DNA from: Myxococcota bacterium | GTDB taxonomy: Bacteria; Myxococcota_A; Polyangia; Polyangiales; Sandaracinaceae | Direction of reading: 5' to 3' | DNA length: 49,523 nt | Assembly (NCBI GenBank): GCA_036149055.1 | Contig: JAYZQJ010000260.1 | Location: 1-49,523, forward strand | In this document: positions 384 to 24,793 of the stretch, in pieces | Position numbering within the stretch: position 1 is the first letter of the stretch | Layout of the letters: the number at the start of each line of letters is the position of its first letter | Position numbers and translations under genes: made by a program | Notes under the pieces: model-generated | What the model was told of the DNA's origin: nothing | Databases searched by the model: none | Seen by the model: only the letters and a program-made list of their open reading frames with translations

Positions 384-2030
384 TCAGGAGAGGGCGTCGT
401 GGGCGGCCTGGAGCAGCTCGCGGCGGTGGAAGGGCTTGCGCACCACGCGGTAGCCGCGGTGGGCCGAGAGGCGGCGCAGCGAGCCGTCGGAGCGGTGGCC
501 GCTGACGACCACCACCGGGACGCCGAGCACGTGGGCGCGCTCCGCCATCTGCAGGCCGTCGCCGTCCGGCAGCTCGAGGTCCGTCACCACCAGGTCGAAG
601 CCGGCCGGGAGCGCGCCGAGCGCCTCTCGCAGGGTGCCCACCGCGCTGACCGACCAGCCGTGCGCCTCCATCACGCGGCCGATCACCACCCGCACCGCGC
701 GGTCGTCCTCGAGCAGGAGCACCCGCTCGCCGCTCCGGCGGGGCGGGGTGTCCTCGCCCTGCGCGGGCGCCTTCGGGTTCTCGACCGAGGTCGGCAGGTA
801 CACGCGGAAGGTCGTGCCCGCGCCGAGGGTGCTCTCGACGTCGACGCGGCCCGCGTTGCGGTCGACGATGTCCCGCACGAGGGCGAGGCCGAGCCCGGTG
901 CCGGAGGCCTTCGTGGTGAACATCGGCTCGAACACCCGGGCCCGGGTCTCCTCGCTCATGCCCTCGCCGTCGTCGTGAATGGCCAGCTGCACCCAGGGCC
1001 CGGCGCGGCGTGTGCCCGGCGCCTCGGACACCACCGCCGAGGTCCAGCGCACGGTGCCGCGGTCCGCGATCGCCTCCCGCGCGTTCAGGGTGAGGTTGAG
1101 CACCAGCTGGTCGAGCGAGCCGCGGTCGATCGCCACCGCCGGCAGCGGCTCGTCGTGCACGACCTCGAGCTGGATCTCGGGCGGCATCACCCGCCGGATC
1201 AGCCGGGTGACCGAGTCGAGCGCGTCGCGCGCGTCGGCGACCCGGCGGCCGCTCGTCCGGCGCCCGAAGCCGAGGAGCAGCCGGGTCAGGTCGGAGGCGT
1301 GCTGGCTGGCGTCGAGGATCTCCTCCACGTCGCGCAGCCGGTCGGGCTCCTGGATCTGGCTGTGGAGGAGGTCGGCGTAGTTCTCGACCACGGTGAGCAG
1401 GTTGTTGAGATCGTGGGCGGCGCCGCTCGCGAGCAGGGCGATCGCCTCCATGCGCTTGGCCTCCGACAGCGCGACGCTCCGGAGCCGGTCGCGCTCCACC
1501 CGCATGCGCTCGAGGGTGAGCGCCCGGCCGAGGATCTGCGCGACGACGTAGAGCAGCTCGATGTCGCGCCCGGTCCAGGGATCCTCCTCGGACACGTCGT
1601 CGAGCCCGATGAAGCCGCCGAGGGTGTGCTGGATCTGCACCGGGAAGGCGGCGAGCGACTGGATGTCCTGGGCCGCGAGCAGCTCGCGCTCGGCCTCCGC
1701 CTCCGGGGGGAGCTCGGCGAGGGAGGCGACGTGCACGGCGCGGCCACGCTCCATCTCGCGCATCCACCAGGGGAACAGATCGCGCGGGAGCCGCTGGAGG
1801 TGCTCCTTCTGCGGGGTGACGCCGGCCCGACACCACTCGTGGGTGTTGTCGAGCAGGGTCGCGTCGTCGACCCGCAGCAAGAAGAGGTACACCCGGTCGG
1901 CCCCGGTGGCGTCGCCCATCTCGCGCAGCGTGTCGTCGATCGCGCGGTCGAGATCGGCCGCGCCGACGAAGCGCGTCGAGATCGTGTGCACGATGCGCTG
2001 CAGCGCGTCGGCGCGATCACTCTCGACCAT
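384..2030 (-). CDS. Cytoplasmic hybrid sensor histidine kinase (GAF-HisKA-HATPase-REC)
   Basis: N-terminal GAF (ADRVYLF, NTHEWC, GFIGLD); H-box GAAHDLNNLLT; N-box LNLTLNAREA; DDGEGM, FEPMFTTK, GTGLGL; receiver LLLEDD..VVTDLELPDGDG..RKPF. ATG at 2030 chosen; in-frame GTG at 2051 is an alternative. Confidence 0.93.
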   Translation of the reverse strand: MVESDRADALQRIVHTISTRFVGAADLDRAIDDTLREMGDATGADRVYLFLLRVDDATLLDNTHEWCRAGVTPQKEHLQRLPRDLFPWWMREMERGRAVHVASLAELPPEAEAERELLAAQDIQSLAAFPVQIQHTLGGFIGLDDVSEEDPWTGRDIELLYVVAQILGRALTLERMRVERDRLRSVALSEAKRMEAIALLASGAAHDLNNLLTVVENYADLLHSQIQEPDRLRDVEEILDASQHASDLTRLLLGFGRRTSGRRVADARDALDSVTRLIRRVMPPEIQLEVVHDEPLPAVAIDRGSLDQLVLNLTLNAREAIADRGTVRWTSAVVSEAPGTRRAGPWVQLAIHDDGEGMSEETRARVFEPMFTTKASGTGLGLALVRDIVDRNAGRVDVESTLGAGTTFRVYLPTSVENPKAPAQGEDTPPRRSGERVLLLEDDRAVRVVIGRVMEAHGWSVSAVGTLREALGALPAGFDLVVTDLELPDGDGLQMAERAHVLGVPVVVVSGHRSDGSLRRLSAHRGYRVVRKPFHRRELLQAAHDALS

Positions 2031-2087
2031 GAGCCCCCCAGGCTCCCCCACTCCTTCATGGTGTGGTGGAGGGGGTACGGTTACAAG

Positions 2088-3971
2088 TCAGGCGGCGGGG
2101 GGAAGGCTGGGTTTCGTGGTGCTTTGCGGCGCGCCAGGACGCTTGCCGGCCGCGGAGGCCGGTTCGTCGGAGGTCAGCACCCGAACATGCTCCCCGATGT
2201 CGGACGTCAGGTCCGCCTCGAGCTCCTCGGGCACGTCGAAGAGGCCGCGCCCCTCGAGCGCGAGCCCGTGCGCCTCGGGGTAATCGATCTGTCCGACGTC
2301 GAGCCCCTCGATGCGGGCGAGCGCGTTCGCGTAGATGACGAGGTTGGGGAGGCTTCGTGGGCTGGCCAGGTCGTAGCGATCGGACTGCTCGATCGTCTTC
2401 GTCACCGGCTCGGGCAGCTCCCACTCCTTCGCGAGCGCCTTGCCCGCCTCGCGGTGGAACTGCTCGACGATGCCGAGCCACACGCCGTCGTTCATCCAGC
2501 TCGCCCCGAGCGCGTCGAGCAGGTTGCGCTCCGCGTCGAGCAGGTAGGCGGCGACGATCGGCTTGCCGACGTCGTGGAGCAGGCCGCCGAGGTAGGCCAC
2601 GTCGGGCTCGGGGCCGTCGTCGACGTGCTGGGCGAGCCCGCGCGCGAGCGTGCCCACCGCGAGGCAGTGCTCCCAGAGACGCCGGAAGGTCTGGCGGATG
2701 CGCGGATCGCGCGAGACGAAGACCTGACGCACGCTCAGCTCGAGGAGGAGCGAGCGCGTCCGCTTGATGCCGATCCGGCTGACCGCCTGGCGGATGGAGG
2801 CGATGCGACCGCGGCCGCCGAACGCCGGGCTGTTCACCACCCGCATGACCTTGCTGGACACGAGCGGGTCGCGCTCGATCAGCGCGGCGACCTTGCCGAG
2901 GTCGGCGTCCGGATCGGACAGCTCCTCCAGGCAGACGGTGACCACGGTGGGGATGCCCGGGAGCTGGGCGCGCCCGTAGGCGAGGCGGCGGCGCAGGATC
3001 TTGGTCAGCTCGCGCCCGACGGTCACGCTCTGGCGGCGCTCCATCTCGCGCTTGCCCTTGTAGGTCACCGGCTCGGGCTTGCCTTCGGCCGCCTCCTCGA
3101 GCGCGGCGGCGAACGCGCGCACGTCCTCGAAGCGATCCTCCGGCCGCTTCGCCAGCGCCCGCCGGACCACGGCGTCGAGCGCGGCCGGCAGCTCCGGGGC
3201 GTGCTTCTGGAGCGGCGCCGGGTCCTCGGTGGAGTGCATCACGACCAGGCGCCCGAAGCTGTCGCTCTCGAAGGGCGGCAGGCCGGTGAGCATCTCGTAG
3301 GTGACCACGCCGAGGGCGTACTGGTCCGAGCGCGCGTCGATCTCCGCGTCCCCGAGGCACTGCTCCGGGGACATGTAGGTCGGCGTGCCGAGCACCATGC
3401 CGGGGCGGGTCCCGCGCCCGAAGATGCCGGGGCCGGCGAGCTTGGCGATGCCGAAGTCCAGGACCTTCACCCGGTCCGGGTAGTCGGCGTGCGCACAGAG
3501 GAAGATGTTCTCCGGCTTGAGATCCCGGTGCACCACGCCCCGCTCGTGCGCGGCGGAGAGCGCCAGCGCGATCTGCTTCACCATCGTGAGGGTGGGGGCG
3601 AGCGCGATTCGCTCGTCCCGGTCGAGGCGAGCGCCGAGGGTCTCGCCCTCGAGCAGCTCCATCACCAGGTAGACCAGCCCGGCCTCGTCGCCGAAGTCGG
3701 TGATGTCGACGATGTTCGGGTGGCGGATGGCGTTGACCGCGCGGGCCTCGCGCACGAAGCGGCCGACCGGCTCGGGGTCGACCGAGAGCTCGGGGCGGAG
3801 CACCTTGATGGCGACCCGCCGCCCGATGCGCACGTGCTCGGCGTACCAGACGGTGCCCATGCCGCCCGCGCCCAGCTCGGTGACGATGCGGTAGGAGCCG
3901 AGCATGCGGCCCGCCAGCGTCGGCTCACGCTCCGGCGGCAGGGTGTTCCCCATCTCGAGGCTCTCGCTCAC
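2088..3971 (-). CDS. Ser/Thr protein kinase fused to a C-terminal HDOD domain
   Basis: Intact kinase motifs GAGGMG, VAIK, HRDLKPEN, DFG, GTPTYMSPE; then HDOD hallmarks LPGIP, IERDPLVSSKVMRVVNSPAF, SIRQAVSRIG, LWEHCLAVG, GLLHDVGK, LAKEWELP. Confidence 0.93.
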   Translation of the reverse strand: MSESLEMGNTLPPEREPTLAGRMLGSYRIVTELGAGGMGTVWYAEHVRIGRRVAIKVLRPELSVDPEPVGRFVREARAVNAIRHPNIVDITDFGDEAGLVYLVMELLEGETLGARLDRDERIALAPTLTMVKQIALALSAAHERGVVHRDLKPENIFLCAHADYPDRVKVLDFGIAKLAGPGIFGRGTRPGMVLGTPTYMSPEQCLGDAEIDARSDQYALGVVTYEMLTGLPPFESDSFGRLVVMHSTEDPAPLQKHAPELPAALDAVVRRALAKRPEDRFEDVRAFAAALEEAAEGKPEPVTYKGKREMERRQSVTVGRELTKILRRRLAYGRAQLPGIPTVVTVCLEELSDPDADLGKVAALIERDPLVSSKVMRVVNSPAFGGRGRIASIRQAVSRIGIKRTRSLLLELSVRQVFVSRDPRIRQTFRRLWEHCLAVGTLARGLAQHVDDGPEPDVAYLGGLLHDVGKPIVAAYLLDAERNLLDALGASWMNDGVWLGIVEQFHREAGKALAKEWELPEPVTKTIEQSDRYDLASPRSLPNLVIYANALARIEGLDVGQIDYPEAHGLALEGRGLFDVPEELEADLTSDIGEHVRVLTSDEPASAAGKRPGAPQSTTKPSLPPAA

Positions 3972-4007
3972 CGGACCTTCGAACGGTCGGTTCGACTGCG
4001 CCTTTAG

Positions 4008-5729
4008 TCAGGATCCGCCGGACGCGAGCGGGAAGACGATCTCGAAGGTCGTGCCGCGCCCAAGCTCGCTCCGGACGTCGACCGCGCCGCCCCACTGCTG
4101 GGCGATGCCGTGCACGGTCGCGAGGCCGAGCCCGGTGCCTCGGTCGTTCTCCTTGGTGGTGAAGAAGGGCTCGAAGATCCGGGCCGCGGTCGCCGGGTCC
4201 ATGCCCACGCCGGTGTCGGAGACCTCGAGGCGGCCCGCGCCGTCTTCGACCCGCACGGTCAGCGAGAGCGCGCCGCCCTCCGGCATCGCGTCCCGCGCGT
4301 TCACGGCCAGGTTCATCACGACCTGCTCGAGCTGCGAGCCGTCCACCCGCGCCACGCACGGGCCGGGCGCGTCGATCGAGAGCGCGATCTCCGGGCCCAC
4401 CAGCCGGGACAGGAGCGGCCGAAGCCCGCGCACCACCGCGGCCACGTCGAGCTCCCGGGGCTGACCCGGCTGCTCGCGGGCGAAGGTCAGCAGCTGGCGC
4501 ACCAGCCCGTTCGCGCGGTCGGTGACGTCGCCCATGTCGGTGACCAGGGCCTTGGCGCTCGGGGTGAGCGGCTCCGACTCGAGCAGCACCCGCACGCTCA
4601 TCAGCACAGTGAGCAGGTTGCCGAAGTCGTGGGCCACCCCGCCGGCGAGCGCGCCGAGGGCCTCCATGCGCTGAGACGCCGCCAGCCGCCGGGCCAGCTC
4701 CCGCCGCTCGCGCTGCGCCCGCCGCCGCGCGGTCACGTCCCGGGCCACCAGCTGCAGACAAGGCCCGCCGCCGGTGGTCGCCACCCGCACGTTGACCTCG
4801 AGGTCCCGGCGCTCCCCGTCCGGCCGCACGATCTGGAAGGTCGAGAGCCGGCTGTCGGTGCTCGCGTCGGAGATGGGATCGTCGTCCCCGGAGAGATCGA
4901 AGCCGAGCGCGTCGAGGGGGAGCCCGACGATCTCGTCGCGCCCTCGGCCGAGGAGCCGCTCGGCCGCCGGGTTGCACATCGCGACGGTGCCGGCCGGCCC
5001 GACGGTCACGATCGCGTCCGGCGAGCCCTGCACCATGTCCGCGAGCTCGCGCTCGCCCTGCGTGGCGGCGGCGACGGCGGCCCGGTGCCGGAGCGCGGTC
5101 GCGACGAGGTGGAGCACGGCCTCGACGAGCTCGGCGTCGTGAGACTTGGCCGCCCCGTCGAGCTCGACGACGAGCGCCGCCGCGCCCTGGTCCATCGCCA
5201 CCACGCTGACGATGCGGTCGCCCCGCGGACCGGCCTCCACCCGCGCCTGCTCCCGGCTCTCGGCCCGCTCGAGGGAGACGCGGTCGGAGCGGGCGTCGCC
5301 GGGCGCCCCTCGCTCCGCCCGCACGCTCCAGGCGTGACCCCCACGCTGGAGCCAGGCCACGCGGAGGGGCGCGAGGAGCACGTCGACCTGCGCCACGGCG
5401 CGCTCGCGCAGCTCGGCCGCCTCGAGGCCCTCGGCGATGGCGCGGCCGAGGCTGGCCAGCGCCTCGCCTCGGGCGGCGCGCTGGGCGAGGCGCGCGTGCG
5501 CTCGCTGCAGCTCGAAGGCGCGCTCGGCGTGCCCGGCCCGCGCGTGCCGCGACCGACGTAGCTGGAGCGCGGCTAGCCCGAGCCCGGCGAGCCCGGCGAC
5601 CGCCGCGGCTCCGGCCGCGACCCGCCAGCCCTCGGTCGCCCAGACGACCGCGGTCCCGAGCGCGACCGCGACGAGGGGGAGCAGCGCGGCGCTCGAACGC
5701 CCCAGCCACTCCGACCCGTCTCGCCCCAT
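4008..5729 (-). CDS. Membrane sensor histidine kinase (short TM region, GAF-like, PAS, HisKA-HATPase); paralogue 1 of 3
   Basis: Hydrophobic N-terminus; PAS (GSPDAIVTV..CNPAAERLLG); GGVAHDFGNLLT, NLAVNARDAMP, DTGVGM, FEPFFTTK, GTGLGL. ATG 5729 chosen by analogy to the paralogue starts and promoter position. Confidence 0.92.
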   Translation of the reverse strand: MGRDGSEWLGRSSAALLPLVAVALGTAVVWATEGWRVAAGAAAVAGLAGLGLAALQLRRSRHARAGHAERAFELQRAHARLAQRAARGEALASLGRAIAEGLEAAELRERAVAQVDVLLAPLRVAWLQRGGHAWSVRAERGAPGDARSDRVSLERAESREQARVEAGPRGDRIVSVVAMDQGAAALVVELDGAAKSHDAELVEAVLHLVATALRHRAAVAAATQGERELADMVQGSPDAIVTVGPAGTVAMCNPAAERLLGRGRDEIVGLPLDALGFDLSGDDDPISDASTDSRLSTFQIVRPDGERRDLEVNVRVATTGGGPCLQLVARDVTARRRAQRERRELARRLAASQRMEALGALAGGVAHDFGNLLTVLMSVRVLLESEPLTPSAKALVTDMGDVTDRANGLVRQLLTFAREQPGQPRELDVAAVVRGLRPLLSRLVGPEIALSIDAPGPCVARVDGSQLEQVVMNLAVNARDAMPEGGALSLTVRVEDGAGRLEVSDTGVGMDPATAARIFEPFFTTKENDRGTGLGLATVHGIAQQWGGAVDVRSELGRGTTFEIVFPLASGGS

Positions 5730-5748
5730 CCCCACGCCCCCCGGCATA

Positions 5749-5763
5749 TCACCCCTCGTGCCA
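5749..5763 (-). promoter_or_regulatory. Putative sigma54 (-24/-12) promoter, variant -12 (GA instead of GC)
   Basis: Minus strand TGGCACG-AGGG-GTGA, about 20 nt upstream of the 5729 start; comparable position to the boxes before the two paralogues. Confidence 0.5.
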
Positions 5764-5860
5764 AGGCGGCGAACGGCGTCGAGCGCGCAATCCGAAGGGG
5801 GTGTTGCGGGGGTCCGCCCACGCGATCGGGGGCCGCGCCTACGCCCTCACCGAGCGGGAA

Positions 5861-8509
<2,649 letters not shown>

Positions 8510-8544
8510 CCCACCCTCACCGTGTTCACCGACTCGTCCCGGTC

Positions 8545-8559
8545 GCACCGGTCGTGCCA
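8545..8559 (-). promoter_or_regulatory. Putative sigma54 promoter
   Basis: Minus strand TGGCACG-ACCG-GTGC (GG-N10-GC) upstream of the 8509 start. Confidence 0.7.
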
Positions 8560-8686
8560 CCGGGGCGCACGCTGGGTTCGGGGCGCTCGCTCCGCCACGT
8601 GTCGGGCGCGCCCCACAGCCGACCGCGGCGCTATCCACCGAGTGGCCTGAATGGTCGGGGGGCGTCGCCAGCCAGGAAATGGCCAG

Positions 8687-10486
8687 CTACTCGGCGACGT
8701 CCGCCAGAGGGGGTTCCCGATCGGGGGCTTCCGAGTCGATCGGGAGCCGCACTCGGAAGATCGTGCCCGCGCCCGGGCGGCTCTCCACCTCGATGTCCCC
8801 GCGCGCGCGGCGCACGATGCCGTGCACGGTCGCGAGGCCGAGGCCGGTGCCGCCCTCGTCGCCCTTGGTCGTGAAGAAGGGCTCGAAGATCTGGGCGGCG
8901 ATCTCCTCCGACATGCCGACGCCGCTGTCGCGAACGGCGATCACGATCTCTTCGCCCTCGCGGTCGACCGCGATCTCGAGGCGACCGTCGCCCCGCATCG
9001 CGTCGCGCGCGTTGACGGCGAGGTTCATGACCACCTGCTCGAGCTGCGAGGGATCGATGTGCGCGTGAGTCTCCGCCGCGGCGTCCACCGTGAGCGCGAC
9101 CGACGGACCGACCAGGCGGCGCAGCAGGGGCTCGAGCCCGGCGACCGCCTGCCCCACGTCGACGCGACGGGGCGCGCCCGCGCGCTTGCGGGCGAAGGTG
9201 AGGAGCTGACCGGTCAGCGCGGACGCCCGCTCGGAGAGATCGCCCATCTCGTCGATGAGCTCGCGGGCCGAGTCGGGGAGGGGTTCCGACTCGAGCAGCT
9301 CGCGGAGGCCGATCAGGATCGTCAGGAGGTTGTTGAAGTCGTGCGCGACGCCGCCCGCGAGCTTGCCGAGCGCCTCCATGCGTTGTGAGGCGGCCAGCTG
9401 CCGCTGCCCCGCCTGCACCTCCTCGGCGGCCGCGCGGTGTCGGAGCGCGGTGGCGACGAGGTGCGCGATCGCCTCCAGGAACTCGGCGTCGTGCTCGCCC
9501 GGCGACGCGCCCGGCGGGAAGAAGGCGACGATGCCGGCCGCGCCGCCGCCGAGCGACACGGCCGCCGCCATCGTCACCCCGCCGCGCGTCGGCGCGTCGC
9601 CTCTCACCACCTGCCCGAGCGTCTCGGAGGCATCGAGCAGGGGGCTCGCCGCCTCTTCCGGCGCGCCCGGAGCGGCGGAGGCCAGCACGCGCCAGGTCGG
9701 ACCCTCGCGCTTCTCGAGCCACCACACGTCGCGCGCGCGAAGCTCCGCCGCCGCGCGAGAGATCGCGCTCCCGCGGAGCGTCTCGGCGTCCATGTCCTCC
9801 GCGATGTCGCGGCCGAGCGCCGCGAGCGCCTCGCCTCGGGCGGCGCGAATCGTCAGCGCGTCTCGCGCCTCGGCCAGCGCCTCCGCGCGCTCCTCGGCTC
9901 GCACGAGCGCCCGCTCGGTCCCGCGCGCGCCGAACGCCGCGTAGAGCGTGAGGAGCACCAGCATGATCCCGTAGCCGACGGCGTAGGACCGCACCGAGTT
10001 GGGCCAGCCGGGGCCCGGCAGCGGGCCGTCGGCCGAGAGCGCGAAGAAGCCGACGCCGAGCGCGACGCCGACGGCCCCGAAGATCAGCGCGCCGCGCGTC
10101 CCGAGCAGGAGCGCGCCGGCCAGCACCATGAGCGGCAGCGCCCAGGCGAGCGGGCTCTGGAACGGCGGGCCGCCCAGGCTGAAGATGTAGCCGGCCATCG
10201 CGAGCAGGCTCAGGGGGAGCAGCCAGGACGCCGGGCGTTCGCGGCCCGCGAGGACGAGGCCGAAGCCGGCGGCGGTGGGGACGAAGAACACCCAGAACTG
10301 CGCGGTCCGCAGCATCTCGGGTTGCACGAACGCGACCGCGAGGGCGTCCAGCGAGAGGGACACGAGCATGACCGCGTAGACCACCCACGCCGTCTTCGCG
10401 CGCCGCGTCCGAGCCGGGTCCTCGTATGACGGCGGCCCGAGCCAGCGCGCCCCTCTCCAGTCGTGCGTTCGTGTTCGCGGACCCAT
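8687..10486 (-). CDS. Membrane sensor histidine kinase (multi-TM, GAF-like, HisKA-HATPase; no PAS, no REC); paralogue 3 of 3
   Basis: TM region homologous to the 5861-8509 protein; LEAIAHLVATALRHRAA; GGVAHDFNNLLT; DSGVGM, FEPFFTTK, GTGLGL. Confidence 0.93.
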   Translation of the reverse strand: MGPRTRTHDWRGARWLGPPSYEDPARTRRAKTAWVVYAVMLVSLSLDALAVAFVQPEMLRTAQFWVFFVPTAAGFGLVLAGRERPASWLLPLSLLAMAGYIFSLGGPPFQSPLAWALPLMVLAGALLLGTRGALIFGAVGVALGVGFFALSADGPLPGPGWPNSVRSYAVGYGIMLVLLTLYAAFGARGTERALVRAEERAEALAEARDALTIRAARGEALAALGRDIAEDMDAETLRGSAISRAAAELRARDVWWLEKREGPTWRVLASAAPGAPEEAASPLLDASETLGQVVRGDAPTRGGVTMAAAVSLGGGAAGIVAFFPPGASPGEHDAEFLEAIAHLVATALRHRAAAEEVQAGQRQLAASQRMEALGKLAGGVAHDFNNLLTILIGLRELLESEPLPDSARELIDEMGDLSERASALTGQLLTFARKRAGAPRRVDVGQAVAGLEPLLRRLVGPSVALTVDAAAETHAHIDPSQLEQVVMNLAVNARDAMRGDGRLEIAVDREGEEIVIAVRDSGVGMSEEIAAQIFEPFFTTKGDEGGTGLGLATVHGIVRRARGDIEVESRPGAGTIFRVRLPIDSEAPDREPPLADVAE

Positions 10487-19593: not shown

Positions 19594-21357
19594 GTGTCGG
19601 TGAACCCCTTGGAGCAGGAGCGCGACCGCGCGCTCGACGACCCGGCCCTCGAGGCGGCGCTCGCCCGCGCTCACGCGCGCTGCGTGGCGCTGGGCCTGCG
19701 CTCGCCGGAGGCGGGGGACGACCGGGAGTCGCGGCTCGCCGCGCTCCGGGCGATGCGCAGCGCCGTCGCGCTCGTGGAGCAGAGCCGCGCGCTCGAGGTG
19801 GAGCGCAGGAGATACGAGGAGACCGGCAGCGCCGAGGCGCCGATCACGCGCAGCGTCGAGATGCTCGCCGACACCCTGCCGCAGATGGTCTGGATCACGC
19901 GGCCCGACGGTTATCACAAGTACTACAATCGCTACTGGTTCGAGTACACCGGGCTGACCTACGCGGAGGCCAAGGGCACCGGCTGGAACATCCTCCTCCA
20001 CCCGGACGACGTCGAGCGCTCGGTGCAGCGGTGGACGCGCTCGCTCCAGACCGGCGAGGCCTACGAGGTGGAGTACCGCTTCCGCCGCGCCTCGGACGGG
20101 GCCTATCGCTGGTTCCTCGGCCGCGCCCTGCCGCGCCTGGACGAGGACGGGACCATCATCGAGTGGTTCGGCACCTGCACCGACATCCACGACCAGAAGT
20201 CCGCGCAGGAGGCGATGCGGGTCGCGAACGTCTCGAAGGACCAGTTCCTCGCGATGCTCTCGCACGAGCTCCGCACGCCGCTCAACGCGATCCTCGGCTG
20301 GACCCAGCTGATGACGATGGACGAGCTCGGGGCCCCCGAGCGCGCCCGGGCCCTCGACGCGATCGAGCGCAACGCCAAGCTCCAGGCGCAGCTCATCGAG
20401 GACATCCTCGACGCGAGCCGGATCACGAACGACAAGCTGAGCATCGAGAAGGCGCCGCTCCACGCGCACGAGATCGTCGACGCCGCGCTCGCCACCGCGG
20501 CCCCGCTGGCGGCCAAGAAGGACATCACCCTCGACGTGGCCGACGTCGACCACGCGGTGTGGATCGAGGGGGACGCGGCGCGCTTCCACCAGATCGTCTC
20601 GAACCTCCTCGCCAACGCCATCAAGTTCACGCCCCGCGGCGGCCGGGTCAGCCTGCGCTTCGTGCGCGAGGACTCGCGGGCCACGCTCGAGGTCACCGAC
20701 ACCGGGCAGGGGATCGACCCCGAGTTCCTGCCCCACGTCTTCGAGCGCTTCCGGCAGGCGGACAGCCGGAGCACCCGCGGTCACGGCGGCCTGGGCCTCG
20801 GGCTGACCATCGTGAAGAGCCTGGTCGAGCTGCACGGCGGAGACGTCGAGGCGCGGAGCGACGGCGCGGGCCAGGGGGCGACGTTCCGGGTGCGGCTCCC
20901 GGTCCTCGCGGTCCGGCCCGAGGGCGCGCCGAGCACCGACTCGCAGCCGATGATGTACGAGACGATGCCGGGGGACGCGCTCGTCGGGGTGCGCTGCGTG
21001 CTCGTCGACGACGAGCCGAGCGCGCGGGAGGTCGTCACCGCGACCCTCCGGCGCTTCGGGGCCGAGGTCCGGGCGGTGGCGCGGGCGGCCGACGCGCTCG
21101 AGGCGCTCGAGGCCGACCCGCCGCACGTGCTCGTGAGCGACATCGCGATGCCCGAGACGAGCGGCTACGACCTGATCCGCAGCGTGCGAGCGCACCGCGA
21201 CCCCCGGGTCGCCGAGCTCCCGGCCCTCGCCCTGACCGCCTACGCCAGCGTGCAGGACCGGCGGGAGGCGACCGCCGCCGGCTTCGACCGCCACCTCCCG
21301 AAGCCGGTCGAGGCGAACGCCCTCGTCGGGACCGTCAAAGACCTCGCCTCCGCGTAG
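19594..21357 (+). CDS. Hybrid histidine kinase (PAS/PAC-HisKA-HATPase-REC)
   Basis: PAS_3 YYNRYWFEYTG..LHPDD..YRWFLGRA; FLAMLSHELRTPLNAI; NLLANAIKFT; DTGQGI, GLGLGL; REC LVDDE..LVSDIAMP..LTA..KP. Confidence 0.95.
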   Translation: MSVNPLEQERDRALDDPALEAALARAHARCVALGLRSPEAGDDRESRLAALRAMRSAVALVEQSRALEVERRRYEETGSAEAPITRSVEMLADTLPQMVWITRPDGYHKYYNRYWFEYTGLTYAEAKGTGWNILLHPDDVERSVQRWTRSLQTGEAYEVEYRFRRASDGAYRWFLGRALPRLDEDGTIIEWFGTCTDIHDQKSAQEAMRVANVSKDQFLAMLSHELRTPLNAILGWTQLMTMDELGAPERARALDAIERNAKLQAQLIEDILDASRITNDKLSIEKAPLHAHEIVDAALATAAPLAAKKDITLDVADVDHAVWIEGDAARFHQIVSNLLANAIKFTPRGGRVSLRFVREDSRATLEVTDTGQGIDPEFLPHVFERFRQADSRSTRGHGGLGLGLTIVKSLVELHGGDVEARSDGAGQGATFRVRLPVLAVRPEGAPSTDSQPMMYETMPGDALVGVRCVLVDDEPSAREVVTATLRRFGAEVRAVARAADALEALEADPPHVLVSDIAMPETSGYDLIRSVRAHRDPRVAELPALALTAYASVQDRREATAAGFDRHLPKPVEANALVGTVKDLASA

Positions 21358-21366
21358 GTCGACGGA

Positions 21367-21404
21367 CTACGTAAGTTCACAAGTTCACTCCGTCCCCCCC
21401 TCCC
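21367..21404 (+). repeat. Left inverted repeat CTACGTAAGTTCACAAGTTCACTCCGTCCCCCCCTCCC
   Basis: Reverse complement of 22341-22377 (33 bp perfect, then a one-C indel); contains tandem AAGTTCAC x2. Confidence 0.97.
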
Positions 21405-21405
21405 C

Positions 21406-22299
21406 TCAGGAGGCGTCGAAGCAGATCTCGACGCGGTTGACGATGAGGGCGTTGGACGGGGGGCCGGCTTCGATGCGGAGGAGGGTGCCGGAGTCGCCGG
21501 CGGGGAGCGCGAGGGTCGCGTCGGCGGTGTACCAGCGGTAGGGCGCGACGTTCGAGACGCTCGCGTAGCCGGAGCTGCCCGAGCCGGAGAAGCTCATCCA
21601 CTCGAAGCTGCCGCTCGAGCCGGTCGAGTAGCTGCGGCCGTAGATCGCCAGGGTCGCGCTCCGCACCCGGGAGAGCATCGCGGTGCTCAGCTCCACGTCG
21701 ATGAAGACCGTGCCCGACATCTCGAGGCCGCCCTCGCCGAGGAAGGGATCGCGGAACACCGGCGAGTACCCGATCGAGCGCGAGTAAGCCCCCGCGCGCC
21801 ACCGCGAGGTGTCCGGCAACGTGTTCGCCTCGTACACGACGTAAGCACGCGACCCGGAGCCCGAGCCCGCCCACCGGAAACGAACCGCGTGCGTCCCGAC
21901 CGCCCCCGAGATGCACCCCCCCGTGACCCCCGAGTCGATCCCGGAGTCCACACCCGAGTCGATCCCGGAGTCCACGCCCGAGTCGACGCCCGAGTCGATC
22001 CCGGAGTCGACGCCCGAGTCGATCCCCGAGTCGAGGTCGAACCCGGAGTCGAGGTCGATCCCGGAGTCGAGGTCGATCCCGGAGTCGGCGCCGGACCCCG
22101 AGTCGACGTCGGTCGTCCCGGAGTCGACGCTGCCGTCCCCGACCATGCTCGCGTCGACGGCGGCGCCGGCATCGCTCCCGCCATCGGACATCACCGCGCC
22201 CCCGTCGAGCCCCGAGGCGTCCGCCCCGAGCCCTCCGTCGTCCGGGCGAGGATCTCCGCAGGCGGAGAGGATCAGGGCGGCGACGATCCAGCGCTTCAC
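21406..22299 (-). CDS. Lipoprotein with DSG(I/V) low-complexity stalk and ~170-aa Cys-bounded beta-rich C-terminal domain; cargo of the IR-flanked cassette
   Basis: GTG start, MKRWIVAALILSAC lipobox; (DSGI/DSGV/DSGIDL)n; CISG...EICFDAS; stop codon abuts the left IR. Confidence 0.85.
   Translation of the reverse strand: MKRWIVAALILSACGDPRPDDGGLGADASGLDGGAVMSDGGSDAGAAVDASMVGDGSVDSGTTDVDSGSGADSGIDLDSGIDLDSGFDLDSGIDSGVDSGIDSGVDSGVDSGIDSGVDSGIDSGVTGGCISGAVGTHAVRFRWAGSGSGSRAYVVYEANTLPDTSRWRAGAYSRSIGYSPVFRDPFLGEGGLEMSGTVFIDVELSTAMLSRVRSATLAIYGRSYSTGSSGSFEWMSFSGSGSSGYASVSNVAPYRWYTADATLALPAGDSGTLLRIEAGPPSNALIVNRVEICFDAS
21929..22128 (-). repeat. Coding minisatellite (12- and 18-bp units) encoding DSGI/DSGV/DSGIDL
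   Basis: Repeated GAGTCGATCCC / GAGTCGACGCC / GAGTCGAGGTCGA units. Confidence 0.9.
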
Positions 22300-22340
22300 G
22301 CCCGCAGCATACGACGCGCGCCCCCGTTCTTCCCCGGATC

Positions 22341-22377
22341 GGGAGGGGGGACGGAGTGAACTTGTGAACTTACGTAG
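22341..22377 (-). repeat. Right inverted repeat GGGAGGGGGGACGGAGTGAACTTGTGAACTTACGTAG
   Basis: Reverse complement of 21367-21404. Confidence 0.97.
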
Positions 22378-22402
22378 GTCGATTGCCTACAGAGCGCGTG
22401 AT

Positions 22403-23182
22403 CTACATCATCGCGGCGCGGACCGCGTCGTAGTCGGCGGGGTGGGCGCCGATGAGCTTGTCGCCGCCGAAGAACTCGTCGAGCAGCCGGCTGTCGTCCG
22501 ACTCGTGCAGGCGGAGCAGGGCCTCGCGCACCTCGTCGAGCGAGTCGGCGTCGAGGGCGCTCGACGCGCAGACCACGTCCGGCGGGATCGGCGGGGTCAC
22601 CAGGAGCGCGCGCATGCCGTCGTGGCCGGCGTAGGGCTGCCAGCCGGCGAGCATCAGGGTCTCGCCGTCGTCCAGGGTCTGCGCGTGCGTCGCCCCGCAG
22701 TCGGCGTCGCCGCGCATCACCGCGCGCACCACGCTGCCGTGCGAGCCCTCGAACCTCTGCTCGGCGAAGAGCTCCGCGGGATCGTGCCCGGCCTGCCTCA
22801 GCGCGAGCCGCGGGAAGAGGTGCCCGGCGCAGCTGTCCCGGTCGACCCAGGCCACCCGCTTGCCCGCGAGATCCGCCGGCGTCGTGACCTCGGAGTCGCT
22901 CGGCACGAAGAGCACGCCGCGATACCCGGCGCCGCGCGAGCGCTCGACCGCGCAGAGGAGGCGGACCGGCGAGGCCTGCTCGGCGCGCACGAAGATGGCG
23001 GGCGGGAGCCAGGCGAGCTCGGCGTCTCCGCGGCCCACCATCTCCGCCACCGACGCGTAGGAGCGCGAGGCCACTACCTGCACCGGCTGACCGACCGCCT
23101 CCGCGAGGTGCAGGGCGAGCTTCGTGCGCAGCTCCTCGCCTTCGTCGTCGAGGTGAACGGGCCCGGTCAGAAACCTCAGCAT
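22403..23182 (-). CDS. PhnD-like phosphate/phosphonate-binding-fold protein, orphan, no signal peptide
   Basis: SYASVAEMV..ELAWLPP, YRGVLFV, DLAGKRVAWVDRDSCAGHLFP, GSHGSVVRAV..DCGAT, TPPIPPD, DYDAVR; start MLRFLTG. Confidence 0.85.
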   Translation of the reverse strand: MLRFLTGPVHLDDEGEELRTKLALHLAEAVGQPVQVVASRSYASVAEMVGRGDAELAWLPPAIFVRAEQASPVRLLCAVERSRGAGYRGVLFVPSDSEVTTPADLAGKRVAWVDRDSCAGHLFPRLALRQAGHDPAELFAEQRFEGSHGSVVRAVMRGDADCGATHAQTLDDGETLMLAGWQPYAGHDGMRALLVTPPIPPDVVCASSALDADSLDEVREALLRLHESDDSRLLDEFFGGDKLIGAHPADYDAVRAAMM

Positions 23183-23221
23183 CCTTCGCGATCCTCCCAG
23201 CCTCGTGCGACCTTCTCGCGC

Positions 23222-23710
23222 ATGCAGGACGGTAGCACTCTCGACGGCTCCCTGTTCGGCGAGCCTCAGCCTTGCTTCGGCTGCGCGCCGGCCCATCCGA
23301 CCGGGTTCCGGCTGCGGTTCACCCGTGAGGGTGACGCCGTCACCACGAAGTTCACGCCCACCGAGCACCACCAGGGCCCGCCCGGCATCATGCACGGGGG
23401 CCTGGTGATGGCGCTCGCCGACGAGCTCGGCGCGTGGGCGATCATCGGCCTGCTCGAGCAGTTCGGCTTCACCGCCGACTTCTCCGGCAAGCTCCACTCG
23501 CCGGTGCGGGTGGGCGAGGAGGTCGTCGGCCGCGCGCGCATCGCCAAGCCCGGCACCCGGGTGGTCTCGGTCGAGGTGGAGCTGCAGCAGGGCGACGTGC
23601 TTCGCTACACGAGCGCCCTGCGCTTCGTCATCCTCGACGAGGCAGGGGCCGAGCGCATCCTCGGTCAGCCCCTGCCGGAGGCCTGGCGCCGCTTCGGGCG
23701 CAAGGCCTGA
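23222..23710 (+). CDS. PaaI/hotdog-fold thioesterase
   Basis: CFGC..HPTGFRLRF, HQGPPGIMHGGLVMALADE, SPVRVG. Confidence 0.92.
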   Translation: MQDGSTLDGSLFGEPQPCFGCAPAHPTGFRLRFTREGDAVTTKFTPTEHHQGPPGIMHGGLVMALADELGAWAIIGLLEQFGFTADFSGKLHSPVRVGEEVVGRARIAKPGTRVVSVEVELQQGDVLRYTSALRFVILDEAGAERILGQPLPEAWRRFGRKA

Positions 23711-23713
23711 GGA

Positions 23714-24793
23714 TCACTCGGCGCGCAGCTGGACGCTGCGGGCCGCGGACGCGAAGCGCGGCTGCCAGGTCTCGACGTCGTCGGCGGCGACGCTCGCGGT
23801 GACCAGGAGCGGCGCGCCCTCGTGGAAGACGAGGCCGGCGTAGGTGGCGACCCGGTCGCCGCTCTCGGTGTCCATCAGCGCGAGGCGCTCGCAGCCGGGC
23901 AGGGAGCCGTCGTCGATCACGCCCTCGAGCTCCACGTCGGCGGACGGCGCGGGCACGAGGCGCGCGGCGATCTGCGGGCAGGCGCGCGCGACCTGATCGG
24001 GCGGGACCGCCATCGGCAGCGGCGACACCGTGAGGACCGGCGTGTTCGGCTCGGGCGGGAAGGGCGAGCCCGGCGGGAGGTAGACGACGTTCGCGGTCGA
24101 GCGCCGGCTGAGCTCCATGCCCTCGATCGGGCCGAGCTGGATGCCGAGCGCGGCCGCCGCGTCGATGGTGGCCTCGCGGTCCCACTCGACCGACTCGAGC
24201 GCCTCGCGGATGCCGCCGCGGTAGGCCTCGGCCCGCTCGGCCTCGTACATCGCGATGACGCCGAGGGCGCGCGAGCCGTCGTGGGCCATCAGCCACATGC
24301 GCTCGAGCACGCCGGCCTGGGTCTGCACCCGGTCGCGGCCGATGCGCGCGTCGACGCCGGCGAGGGTCACCTCGTCCTCGGCGTCGGGCTCGGGCGCCTC
24401 GCCGGAGCCGCCGGTCCGCATCGCCTCGAGCAGCTCCTCGCCGCCCTGGGCCACGACCACGCTGAGCTGCACGCGGCTGCGGCGCGAGACGAAGCCACCG
24501 CCGAAGGGCATCGGCTCCGAGCCGAGGGGCGGGCGCAGGGTCACCCCGGTGCCGGGCACCGCGGTCGCCTCGCCGAGCCCGAGGGGCCGCGCGCCGGTGA
24601 GGGCCGCGTCGATCGTCGCGGCGCCGCCGCTCGTCTCGTCGTCGTCTTCGTCTTCGTCGTCGTCGTCCCGCGAGGCGCGGCGCTCCTCCTCTTCGGGCTC
24701 GGCCTCGGCCTCGGCGCGCTCGCCGGGCGGGCGGTAGTGACCGGCGCAGCCCGCGAGGGCGGCGCAGGTGGAGAGGAGCAGGATCGATCGCAT
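23714..24793 (-). CDS. Lipoprotein with acidic linker and two tandem PsbP/DcrB-like alpha-beta domains
   Basis: MRSILLLSTCAALAGC lipobox; EEEERRASRDDDDEDEDDDE tract; two modules ending in ..IREALESVEW and ..FASAARSVQL. Fold call is tentative. Confidence 0.75.
   Translation of the reverse strand: MRSILLLSTCAALAGCAGHYRPPGERAEAEAEPEEEERRASRDDDDEDEDDDETSGGAATIDAALTGARPLGLGEATAVPGTGVTLRPPLGSEPMPFGGGFVSRRSRVQLSVVVAQGGEELLEAMRTGGSGEAPEPDAEDEVTLAGVDARIGRDRVQTQAGVLERMWLMAHDGSRALGVIAMYEAERAEAYRGGIREALESVEWDREATIDAAAALGIQLGPIEGMELSRRSTANVVYLPPGSPFPPEPNTPVLTVSPLPMAVPPDQVARACPQIAARLVPAPSADVELEGVIDDGSLPGCERLALMDTESGDRVATYAGLVFHEGAPLLVTASVAADDVETWQPRFASAARSVQLRAE

Follow-up and report, generated by a model that had tools for sequence, protein, structure and literature searches.

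In TIRtrons, a Y1/HUH transposase gene of the TIRYT class lies between terminal inverted repeats (TIRs), some but not all of which carry the terminal motif GGGGWSAS (Di Nocera et al. 2013, PMC3733652, main text). TIRYT transposases have been assigned to TnpA-REP subclass 2.1, which was equated with group 1 of the repetitive extragenic palindrome (REP)-associated tyrosine transposases (RAYTs) (Quentin et al. 2018, PMC6006769, main text); in the main texts of both papers the transposases and their repeats are described from sequence only, and functional tests are called for. For REPINs, the main text of Bertels and Rainey (2011, PMC3116915) treats singlets as remnants of doublets and expects such remnants to be more diverged, and that of Ton-Hoang et al. 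(2012, PMC3333891) proposes that TnpA-REP units and bacterial interspersed mosaic elements (BIMEs) are able to sequester flanking genes. Here we analyze a 49,523-nt stretch (the window; contig JAYZQJ010000260.1, assembly GCA_036149055.1) from a Myxococcota bacterium of the Sandaracinaceae, in which a single gene is enclosed by two inverted 33-nt copies, or arms, of a dispersed repeat that we call family A. We consider it probable that the arms are two solitary copies (solos) of a TIRYT-associated repeat family lying around a native gene, and that nicking and rejoining at a GTAG-N9-CTAC end gives rise to solos and to local losses and swaps of DNA.

The two arms are exact reverse complements and enclose one open reading frame (ORF). 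A preliminary description had read this arrangement as a one-gene mobile cassette of unknown type, resembling those of integrons, and much of its geometry stands: a 10-bp direct repeat is present at 21353-21362 and 22373-22382, the predicted circle measures 1,020 bp, and its scripted junction folds into the long stem described (-42.4 kcal/mol). The spacing needed correction, as the ORF stops 6 nt from the left arm instead of abutting it and starts 45 nt, not 41 nt, from the right arm. The arms are also halves of a hairpin, as had been proposed, the intact form occurring 11 times elsewhere in the host genome (9.9 Mb, 73% GC, 289 contigs, 96% complete). Scanning this genome with up to eight mismatches allowed over 31 nt gave 64 arms: 22 form the 11 intact hairpins, which have a 9-nt loop, 10 lie in five hairpins with short inserts, and 32 are solos, one of which (at C143) is in fact a hairpin with a left arm from a sister family, B, and a right arm from family A. 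At three mismatches or fewer, there were 55 arm matches and none for the reversed control, a genome-wide recurrence beyond chance. The 33-mer has nine exact copies, and 7% of random solo pairs are identical over 33 nt, so the perfect match between the window's arms is unremarkable within the family.

Solos have a sharply defined inner end. GTAG-N9 precedes the arm in 26 of 32 solos, and the 44-bp solos end there, with conservation of 0.84-0.97 inside GTAG and 0.31-0.47 at the next two positions outside. Genome-wide, GTAG-Nx-CTAC occurs 36 times with N9, against 16 with N7, 8 with N8, 7 with N10 and 3 with N11. Solos are more uniform than hairpins, which is unusual: 13 of 32 solos and none of the 22 arms of intact hairpins match the window arm exactly (P = 0.0003, a comparison biased by a reference arm that is itself a solo), and all 11 intact hairpins carry 2-5 mismatches from arm to arm. 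A solo arm folds no better than shuffled sequence (z 0.24 and -0.07).

Element sites are mostly convergent intergenic junctions (37 of 63, compared with 1,375 of 7,685 background junctions, from approximate gene calls made with a codon-usage script). Eight pairs of arms lie 120-6,000 bp apart, four direct, three outward and only one, the window's, inward; the repeat is a dispersed, intergenic one, in large part what the preliminary description had named as evidence against a cassette. GC content beside solos does not drop (0.733 and 0.729, background 0.731), which means that foreign-looking DNA is not a general neighbor of solos, and no recurrent mobile-element family was found among 240 proteins neighboring the repeats. 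Compared with a congeneric genome (G001), three solos and one hairpin have simply inserted into junctions whose synteny is intact, and the genes inside an arm pair on contig C221 are colinear. Repeat sites coincide with synteny breaks in 13 of 17 cases and other junctions of the same 13 regions in 67 of 134 (P = 0.04), in a weak test whose regions were chosen around repeats, with mixed E-value thresholds and with the window's two sites included. Arm A was absent from all 40 other genomes scanned, and degenerate-pattern scans of the collection gave 13 genome and 3 viral matches, none containing it; the four Myxococcota matches among them proved to be another repeat. No published account of the family was found in the open literature, in main texts without supplements (PMC3116915 and PMC5581495 included).

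Three further observations concern family A. At C1:24654-24666, the 9-nt loop differs at two positions from that of locus L061, in strains otherwise 98.8% identical, and the L061 loop is the same as at another site (C244), a hint of conversion between repeat copies. On contig C9 (29644-35035, locus L043), three solos in the same direction lie in an array-like fashion around genes of lower GC, which we take to resemble SMI1/KNR4-type immunity proteins. Lastly, a repeat of ~190 bp is abundant in the host genome (at least 28 copies among those listed, for example C128:129354-129545, L046:7355-7546) and often lies beside solo arms and at assembly breaks or contig ends.

An intact gene for a divergent Y1/HUH transposase lies on contig C63, between doublets of family B, which shares its terminal 11 nt with arm A. 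Together, 69 B-pattern matches (part of them overlapping A arms) and the 64 A arms form 70 clusters, of which seven mix both families. The C63 protein carries HIH and YIHNNP motifs, and H60, H62, Y123, N127 and P128 are invariant in all seven aligned homologues. Its profile matches fall under the cut-offs, with NF047646 (REP_Tyr_transpos; E 2.8e-8, 33.8 bits, cut-off 80), PF01797 (Y1_Tnp; E 0.005) and, weakly, MarR_2 over residues 292-314 (E 0.025), and no relative was found in the PDB; a genome search with Pfam Y1_Tnp gave nine matches and missed the gene, which was found in the gap between the B doublets. Homologues occur in 9 of 31 other genomes of the bacterial family, several with GGGGACG-ended repeats of their own. 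The G001 ortholog is syntenic (50% amino acid identity), and the repeat flanking it matches arm A at 20 of 25 positions and is present in 67 copies in that genome, mostly doublets.

The C63 system probably belongs to TnpA-REP subclass 2.1 and, judged by their sequences, the arm repeats are a new family of the known TIRtron/TIRYT class. They most likely belong to a transposase encoded elsewhere in the genome, and an HUH/Y1 transposase acting in trans appears to be the best candidate mobilizer of arm A. The preliminary description had taken GTAG as the signature of REPs processed by HUH or RAYT transposases and had proposed mobilization in trans; the GTAG-N9-CTAC boundary is indeed conserved, and the candidate is an HUH/Y1 transposase. 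No RAYT gene flanked by the motif was found. The kind of enzyme that the description suggested seeking next to the repeats lies beside family B, not beside family A. No A or B repeat lies within 25 kb of any of the nine PF01797 matches, four of which are at contig ends with one flank unseen.

Other transposase genes and cousin repeats were also seen. Seven near-identical RAYT-like genes of ~235 aa (L001-L007) lie mostly within dense arrays of a different, ~16-bp repeat and are multi-copy, in contrast to typical single-copy RAYTs, and a second multi-copy Y1 element (L008, L009) is cut by contig ends. A second TIRYT-like homologue (C209:58106-58723, L104) is without A or B repeats. Genome G008 has four-helix-bundle (TIGR02436) genes surrounded, at three loci (L026, L028, L029), by a cousin repeat that shares the terminal motif, as well as a TIRYT-like gene with one internal stop and related ends (L105). 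A link between TIGR02436 genes and the repeats was rejected for the host, in which none of nine homologues adjoins an A or B cluster.

The enclosed gene is most likely a native bystander and not cargo. Its composition is host-like (GC 0.717; GC3 0.95, the 24th percentile of 7,072 genes), and homologues occur in at least 17 of 40 other genomes among the matches listed (G023 left out). The G001 ortholog (73% amino acid identity) has the same outer neighbors, other genes directly beside it and no arm repeats, an arrangement that the preliminary description had itself named as contrary to a cassette. The predicted protein has a lipoprotein-type N terminus, as read from its sequence, and a DSG-repeat linker, followed by a probable beta-sandwich domain, to which Atlas feature matches, all at or below 0.85, give the sole lead. 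The linker is encoded by 12-bp tandem repeats (21900-22110) whose copy pattern differs between strains.

Strain comparisons speak against a mobile cassette. Seven loci, all in a single other assembly and 97.8-99.7% identical to the host genome, came from a metagenome scan. One belongs to a sister strain (L062; 97.8-99.4% nucleotide identity) whose gene keeps the window's position and orientation and has only the right arm beside it; because it remains in place in sister strains with one arm, the gene is not taken to be a mobile cassette. In L062, window positions 21365-21400 are replaced by ~600 bp of foreign DNA (64.5% GC) encoding a strain-specific, cysteine-rich, lipoprotein-like ORF of 150 aa (L062:3516-3968, minus strand), that matches no Pfam family and lacks a clear homologue in the host genome. 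The first 11 nt of the left mini-hairpin (21354-21364), on its loop side, are kept in strains without the left arm, and the last 8 nt of the L062 insert match the end of the repeat; the arm either entered as a patch through short homologies or had its core replaced by foreign DNA. Single-nucleotide polymorphisms of the two left alleles are of mixed polarity relative to G001 and do not indicate which is older. Beside the right arm, L062 lacks the 16 bp between two GTAG tetramers, which form 4-bp direct repeats, and the kinase and phnD stops each lie in a GTAG. Strain differences are thus present at both arms, and the repeats sit where DNA is gained, lost or flipped.

The locus was present in 20 of 24 listed sequencing runs, from 12 studies, and judging by these runs the host species is marine. 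Four runs were compared with the window, all as contigs, which drop rare variants and break at the repeated arm sequence. Run X1, possibly the source of the assembly, matches the window; X5 and X13, from two further studies, diverge at 21364 and continue for ~600 letters, X5 rejoining at 21396, and from the place and length of this divergence they probably carry the L062-type insert. In X16, contigs on either side reach into the left arm by a little under 31 letters. All four runs have the right arm and the 16-bp segment. Neither an empty site nor a circle junction was seen in the host genome, the fetched loci or the joints listed for the four runs, contigs being prone to drop rare forms; of the events foreseen by the preliminary description, only an inversion, relative to G001, was found. 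Joints in the runs that go back on themselves resemble circle junctions, but were rejected since they carry the loop letters of hairpins at other loci. Coordinates are collected in Table 1.

Table 1. Features of the locus in window coordinates, with the candidate transposase gene given by contig and locus.
Feature	Position	Strand	Remark
PAS-histidine kinase-receiver gene	19594..21357	+	TAG stop inside left GTAG; absent at same locus in G001
Left GTAG-N9-CTAC mini-hairpin	21354..21370	+	Inner end of solo arm
Left arm, TIR-type repeat family A	21367..21399	+	Polymorphic among strains
Enclosed gene, 297 aa	21406..22299	-	Sole ORF between arms
Right arm, family A	22345..22377	-	Present in every strain seen; two substitutions in X5 and X13
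Right GTAG-N9-CTAC mini-hairpin	22374..22390	not assigned
16-bp segment between two CTAC/GTAG tetramers	22391..22406		Absent in L062; present in X1, X5, X13 and X16
Phosphonate-binding-family (phnD-like) gene	22403-23182	-	Part of inverted block 22398..23717
Presumed thioesterase-like gene	23222-23710	+	Part of inverted block 22398..23717
Y1/HUH transposase ORF between family B doublets	C63:7855-9094 (L087:1056-2295)		Intact, 344 aa

The block downstream of the right arm, whose second gene we take to be thioesterase-like, is inverted relative to all five relatives in which the three marker genes are all present at the locus. It is bounded by a 6-bp inverted repeat (22398-22403 and 23712-23717) that begins 7 bp from the right element, and L062 has the block in the window's orientation. 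Far upstream, four paralogous kinase-like repeats with ~2.3 kb spacing occupy roughly window positions 800-9900.

In the explanation that we favor, the repeat family would be non-autonomous, and the C63 TIRYT-type Y1/HUH transposase would act on its copies in trans, nicking and rejoining hairpin copies in single-stranded form. Where strands break and rejoin at the GTAG-N9-CTAC inner end, the 44-bp solos would be left behind, and the same breakage may sometimes delete or swap adjoining DNA, such as the 16 bp lost from GTAG to GTAG and the 600 bp swapped at the left arm. Both solos would then sit in a rearrangement-prone spot around an ordinary inherited gene. An alternative already raised in the preliminary description, two REP-like insertions, fits best.

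Several findings weigh against this explanation. The C63 gene is flanked by family B and never by family A, which makes its link to family A indirect. Among 30 loci examined, the G001 repeats have no GTAG-N9-CTAC end and so give no backing for a transposase that recognizes it. The arm end GGGGACGG fits the GGGGWSAS motif at seven of eight positions; most homologous transposase loci read GGGGACGS, and one (L100) fits the motif exactly. Cases of a single gene with repeats on both flanks exceed the chance number (4 observed, 0.56 expected; P = 0.003), and two further flanked genes were missed by the crude gene caller. The enclosed gene has the opposite orientation in G001. L062, which has no left arm, retains the left 9 bp of the direct repeat, and a direct-repeat match of this kind, with at least five shared loop letters, is expected in only 18 of 650 ordered solo pairs (2.8%); because it is partly family consensus, we regard the direct repeat as suggestive but weak.

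Some of these findings hint at more than coincidence. A local cut-and-re-entry, which would retain part of the preliminary interpretation, is in our judgment unlikely. In the species ancestor, the gene and an adjacent hairpin would have been excised as a single-stranded circle that re-entered nearby through its loop, yielding inward arms and an inversion; in some strains, the left arm would later have given way to foreign DNA. On this account, the repeats would indeed mobilize genes beside them, though rarely. The direct repeat of 9-10 bp rebuilds two proper 9-nt loops, the L062 stop codons both fall within GTAG, the allele with the foreign insert retains element-like ends at either side, the gene's orientation is opposite to that in G001, and sequestration of flanking genes has been proposed before (PMC3333891, main text); the association with synteny breaks adds to this weakly, given its element-centered regions and mixed thresholds. 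Against it stand the missing empty site and circle, the fact that the genome holds a single inward pair while the genes of the C221 pair are colinear in G001, and the simple insertions of three solos and one hairpin at intact sites.

It is also doubtful that hairpins decayed without transposase chemistry at GTAG. An arm would be lost by replication slippage or repair, gene conversion would homogenize the solos, and the window's pair would be coincidental remnants, a history compatible with the enclosed gene being a bystander. The mismatched arms of all 11 hairpins, set against the exact solos, are consistent with it, as are the 4-bp direct repeats flanking the 16-bp loss and the precedent of REPIN singlets as doublet remnants (PMC3116915, main text). 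However, slippage would scatter breakpoints, whereas conservation drops sharply outside GTAG, and that same text would have remnants diverge more than doublets do, contrary to the pattern observed here.

A more far-reaching proposal, quite unlikely in our view, is that a TIRYT subfamily gained the GTAG-N9-CTAC loop as a strand-exchange site, at which hairpins are split, neighboring genes such as the enclosed one are excised and re-enter, and foreign genes such as the lipoprotein-like ORF of the 600-bp insert are swapped in. If true, it would mean HUH-driven gain and shuffling of accessory genes, with ongoing polymorphism among strains at a single locus.

Flipping of the segment between its 33-bp arms within a population, as an invertible switch, is very improbable. 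The perfect inverted arms and the opposite orientation in G001 would suit it, but L062, X5 and X13 have one arm and yet the window's orientation, the gene's upstream region would flip along with the gene, and none of four tyrosine recombinase matches lies on a repeat-bearing contig (serine recombinases were not searched). Integron attC cassettes are defined by core sites and extrahelical bases, and movement of an integron-like cassette by a tyrosine recombinase acting on a folded site is scarcely credible here: the rebuilt junction is a long hairpin, but its stem is perfect and free of extrahelical bases, GTTRRRY/RYYYAAC is absent from the junction and from either end and GTTRRRY from all 11 hairpins, no match exceeds the 265-bit cut-off of TIGR02249 (best score 87.7 bits, in a genome 96% complete), and the gene is host-like in composition and inherited in place.

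The locus is a compact test case, with one candidate enzyme, two repeat subfamilies, a GTAG boundary that predicts the cut site, and three alleles in a marine species recovered by at least 12 studies, one of which is possibly the source of the assembly. If the enzyme cuts at the GTAG boundary, these repeats would be shown to drive gene gain and rearrangement; if not, they are an ordinary repeat family, and the case cautions that a single gene between inverted repeats can be mistaken for a cassette.

Compared with described systems, the locus shares with integron attC cassettes a single ORF whose rebuilt junction would be a hairpin; unlike them, it has no core sites, no extrahelical bases and no integron integrase, and its gene appears not to be mobile. 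With REPINs and GTAG-tagged REPs, as presented in the main texts, it shares hairpin doublets and singlets, convergent intergenic sites and the GTAG tetramer, and with REPIN/RAYT systems a single domesticated Y1 transposase and the proposed capture of flanking genes. It departs from GTAG-tagged REPs, in which GTAG is unpaired at the outer foot of the palindrome, by having GTAG at the inner end, paired with CTAC; from RAYTs, in that no RAYT gene flanked by the arm motif was found among the nine PF01797 matches; and from REPINs, in that singlets are less diverged than doublets. The closest likeness is to TIRtron/TIRYT systems, with which it has in common a transposase gene flanked by inverted repeat copies (family B here, A-like in G001), a GGGG-type repeat start, the HUH motif and Y---NP signature, and repeats dispersed in extragenic DNA as singles, dimers and clusters; the weak sub-cut-off MarR_2 match hints at the C-terminal helix-turn-helix of subclass 2.1. 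What sets family A apart from these systems is its fixed GTAG-N9-CTAC inner end, at which solos stop exactly, together with solos more uniform than hairpins and a transposase that falls under both the Pfam and the NCBIfam cut-offs.

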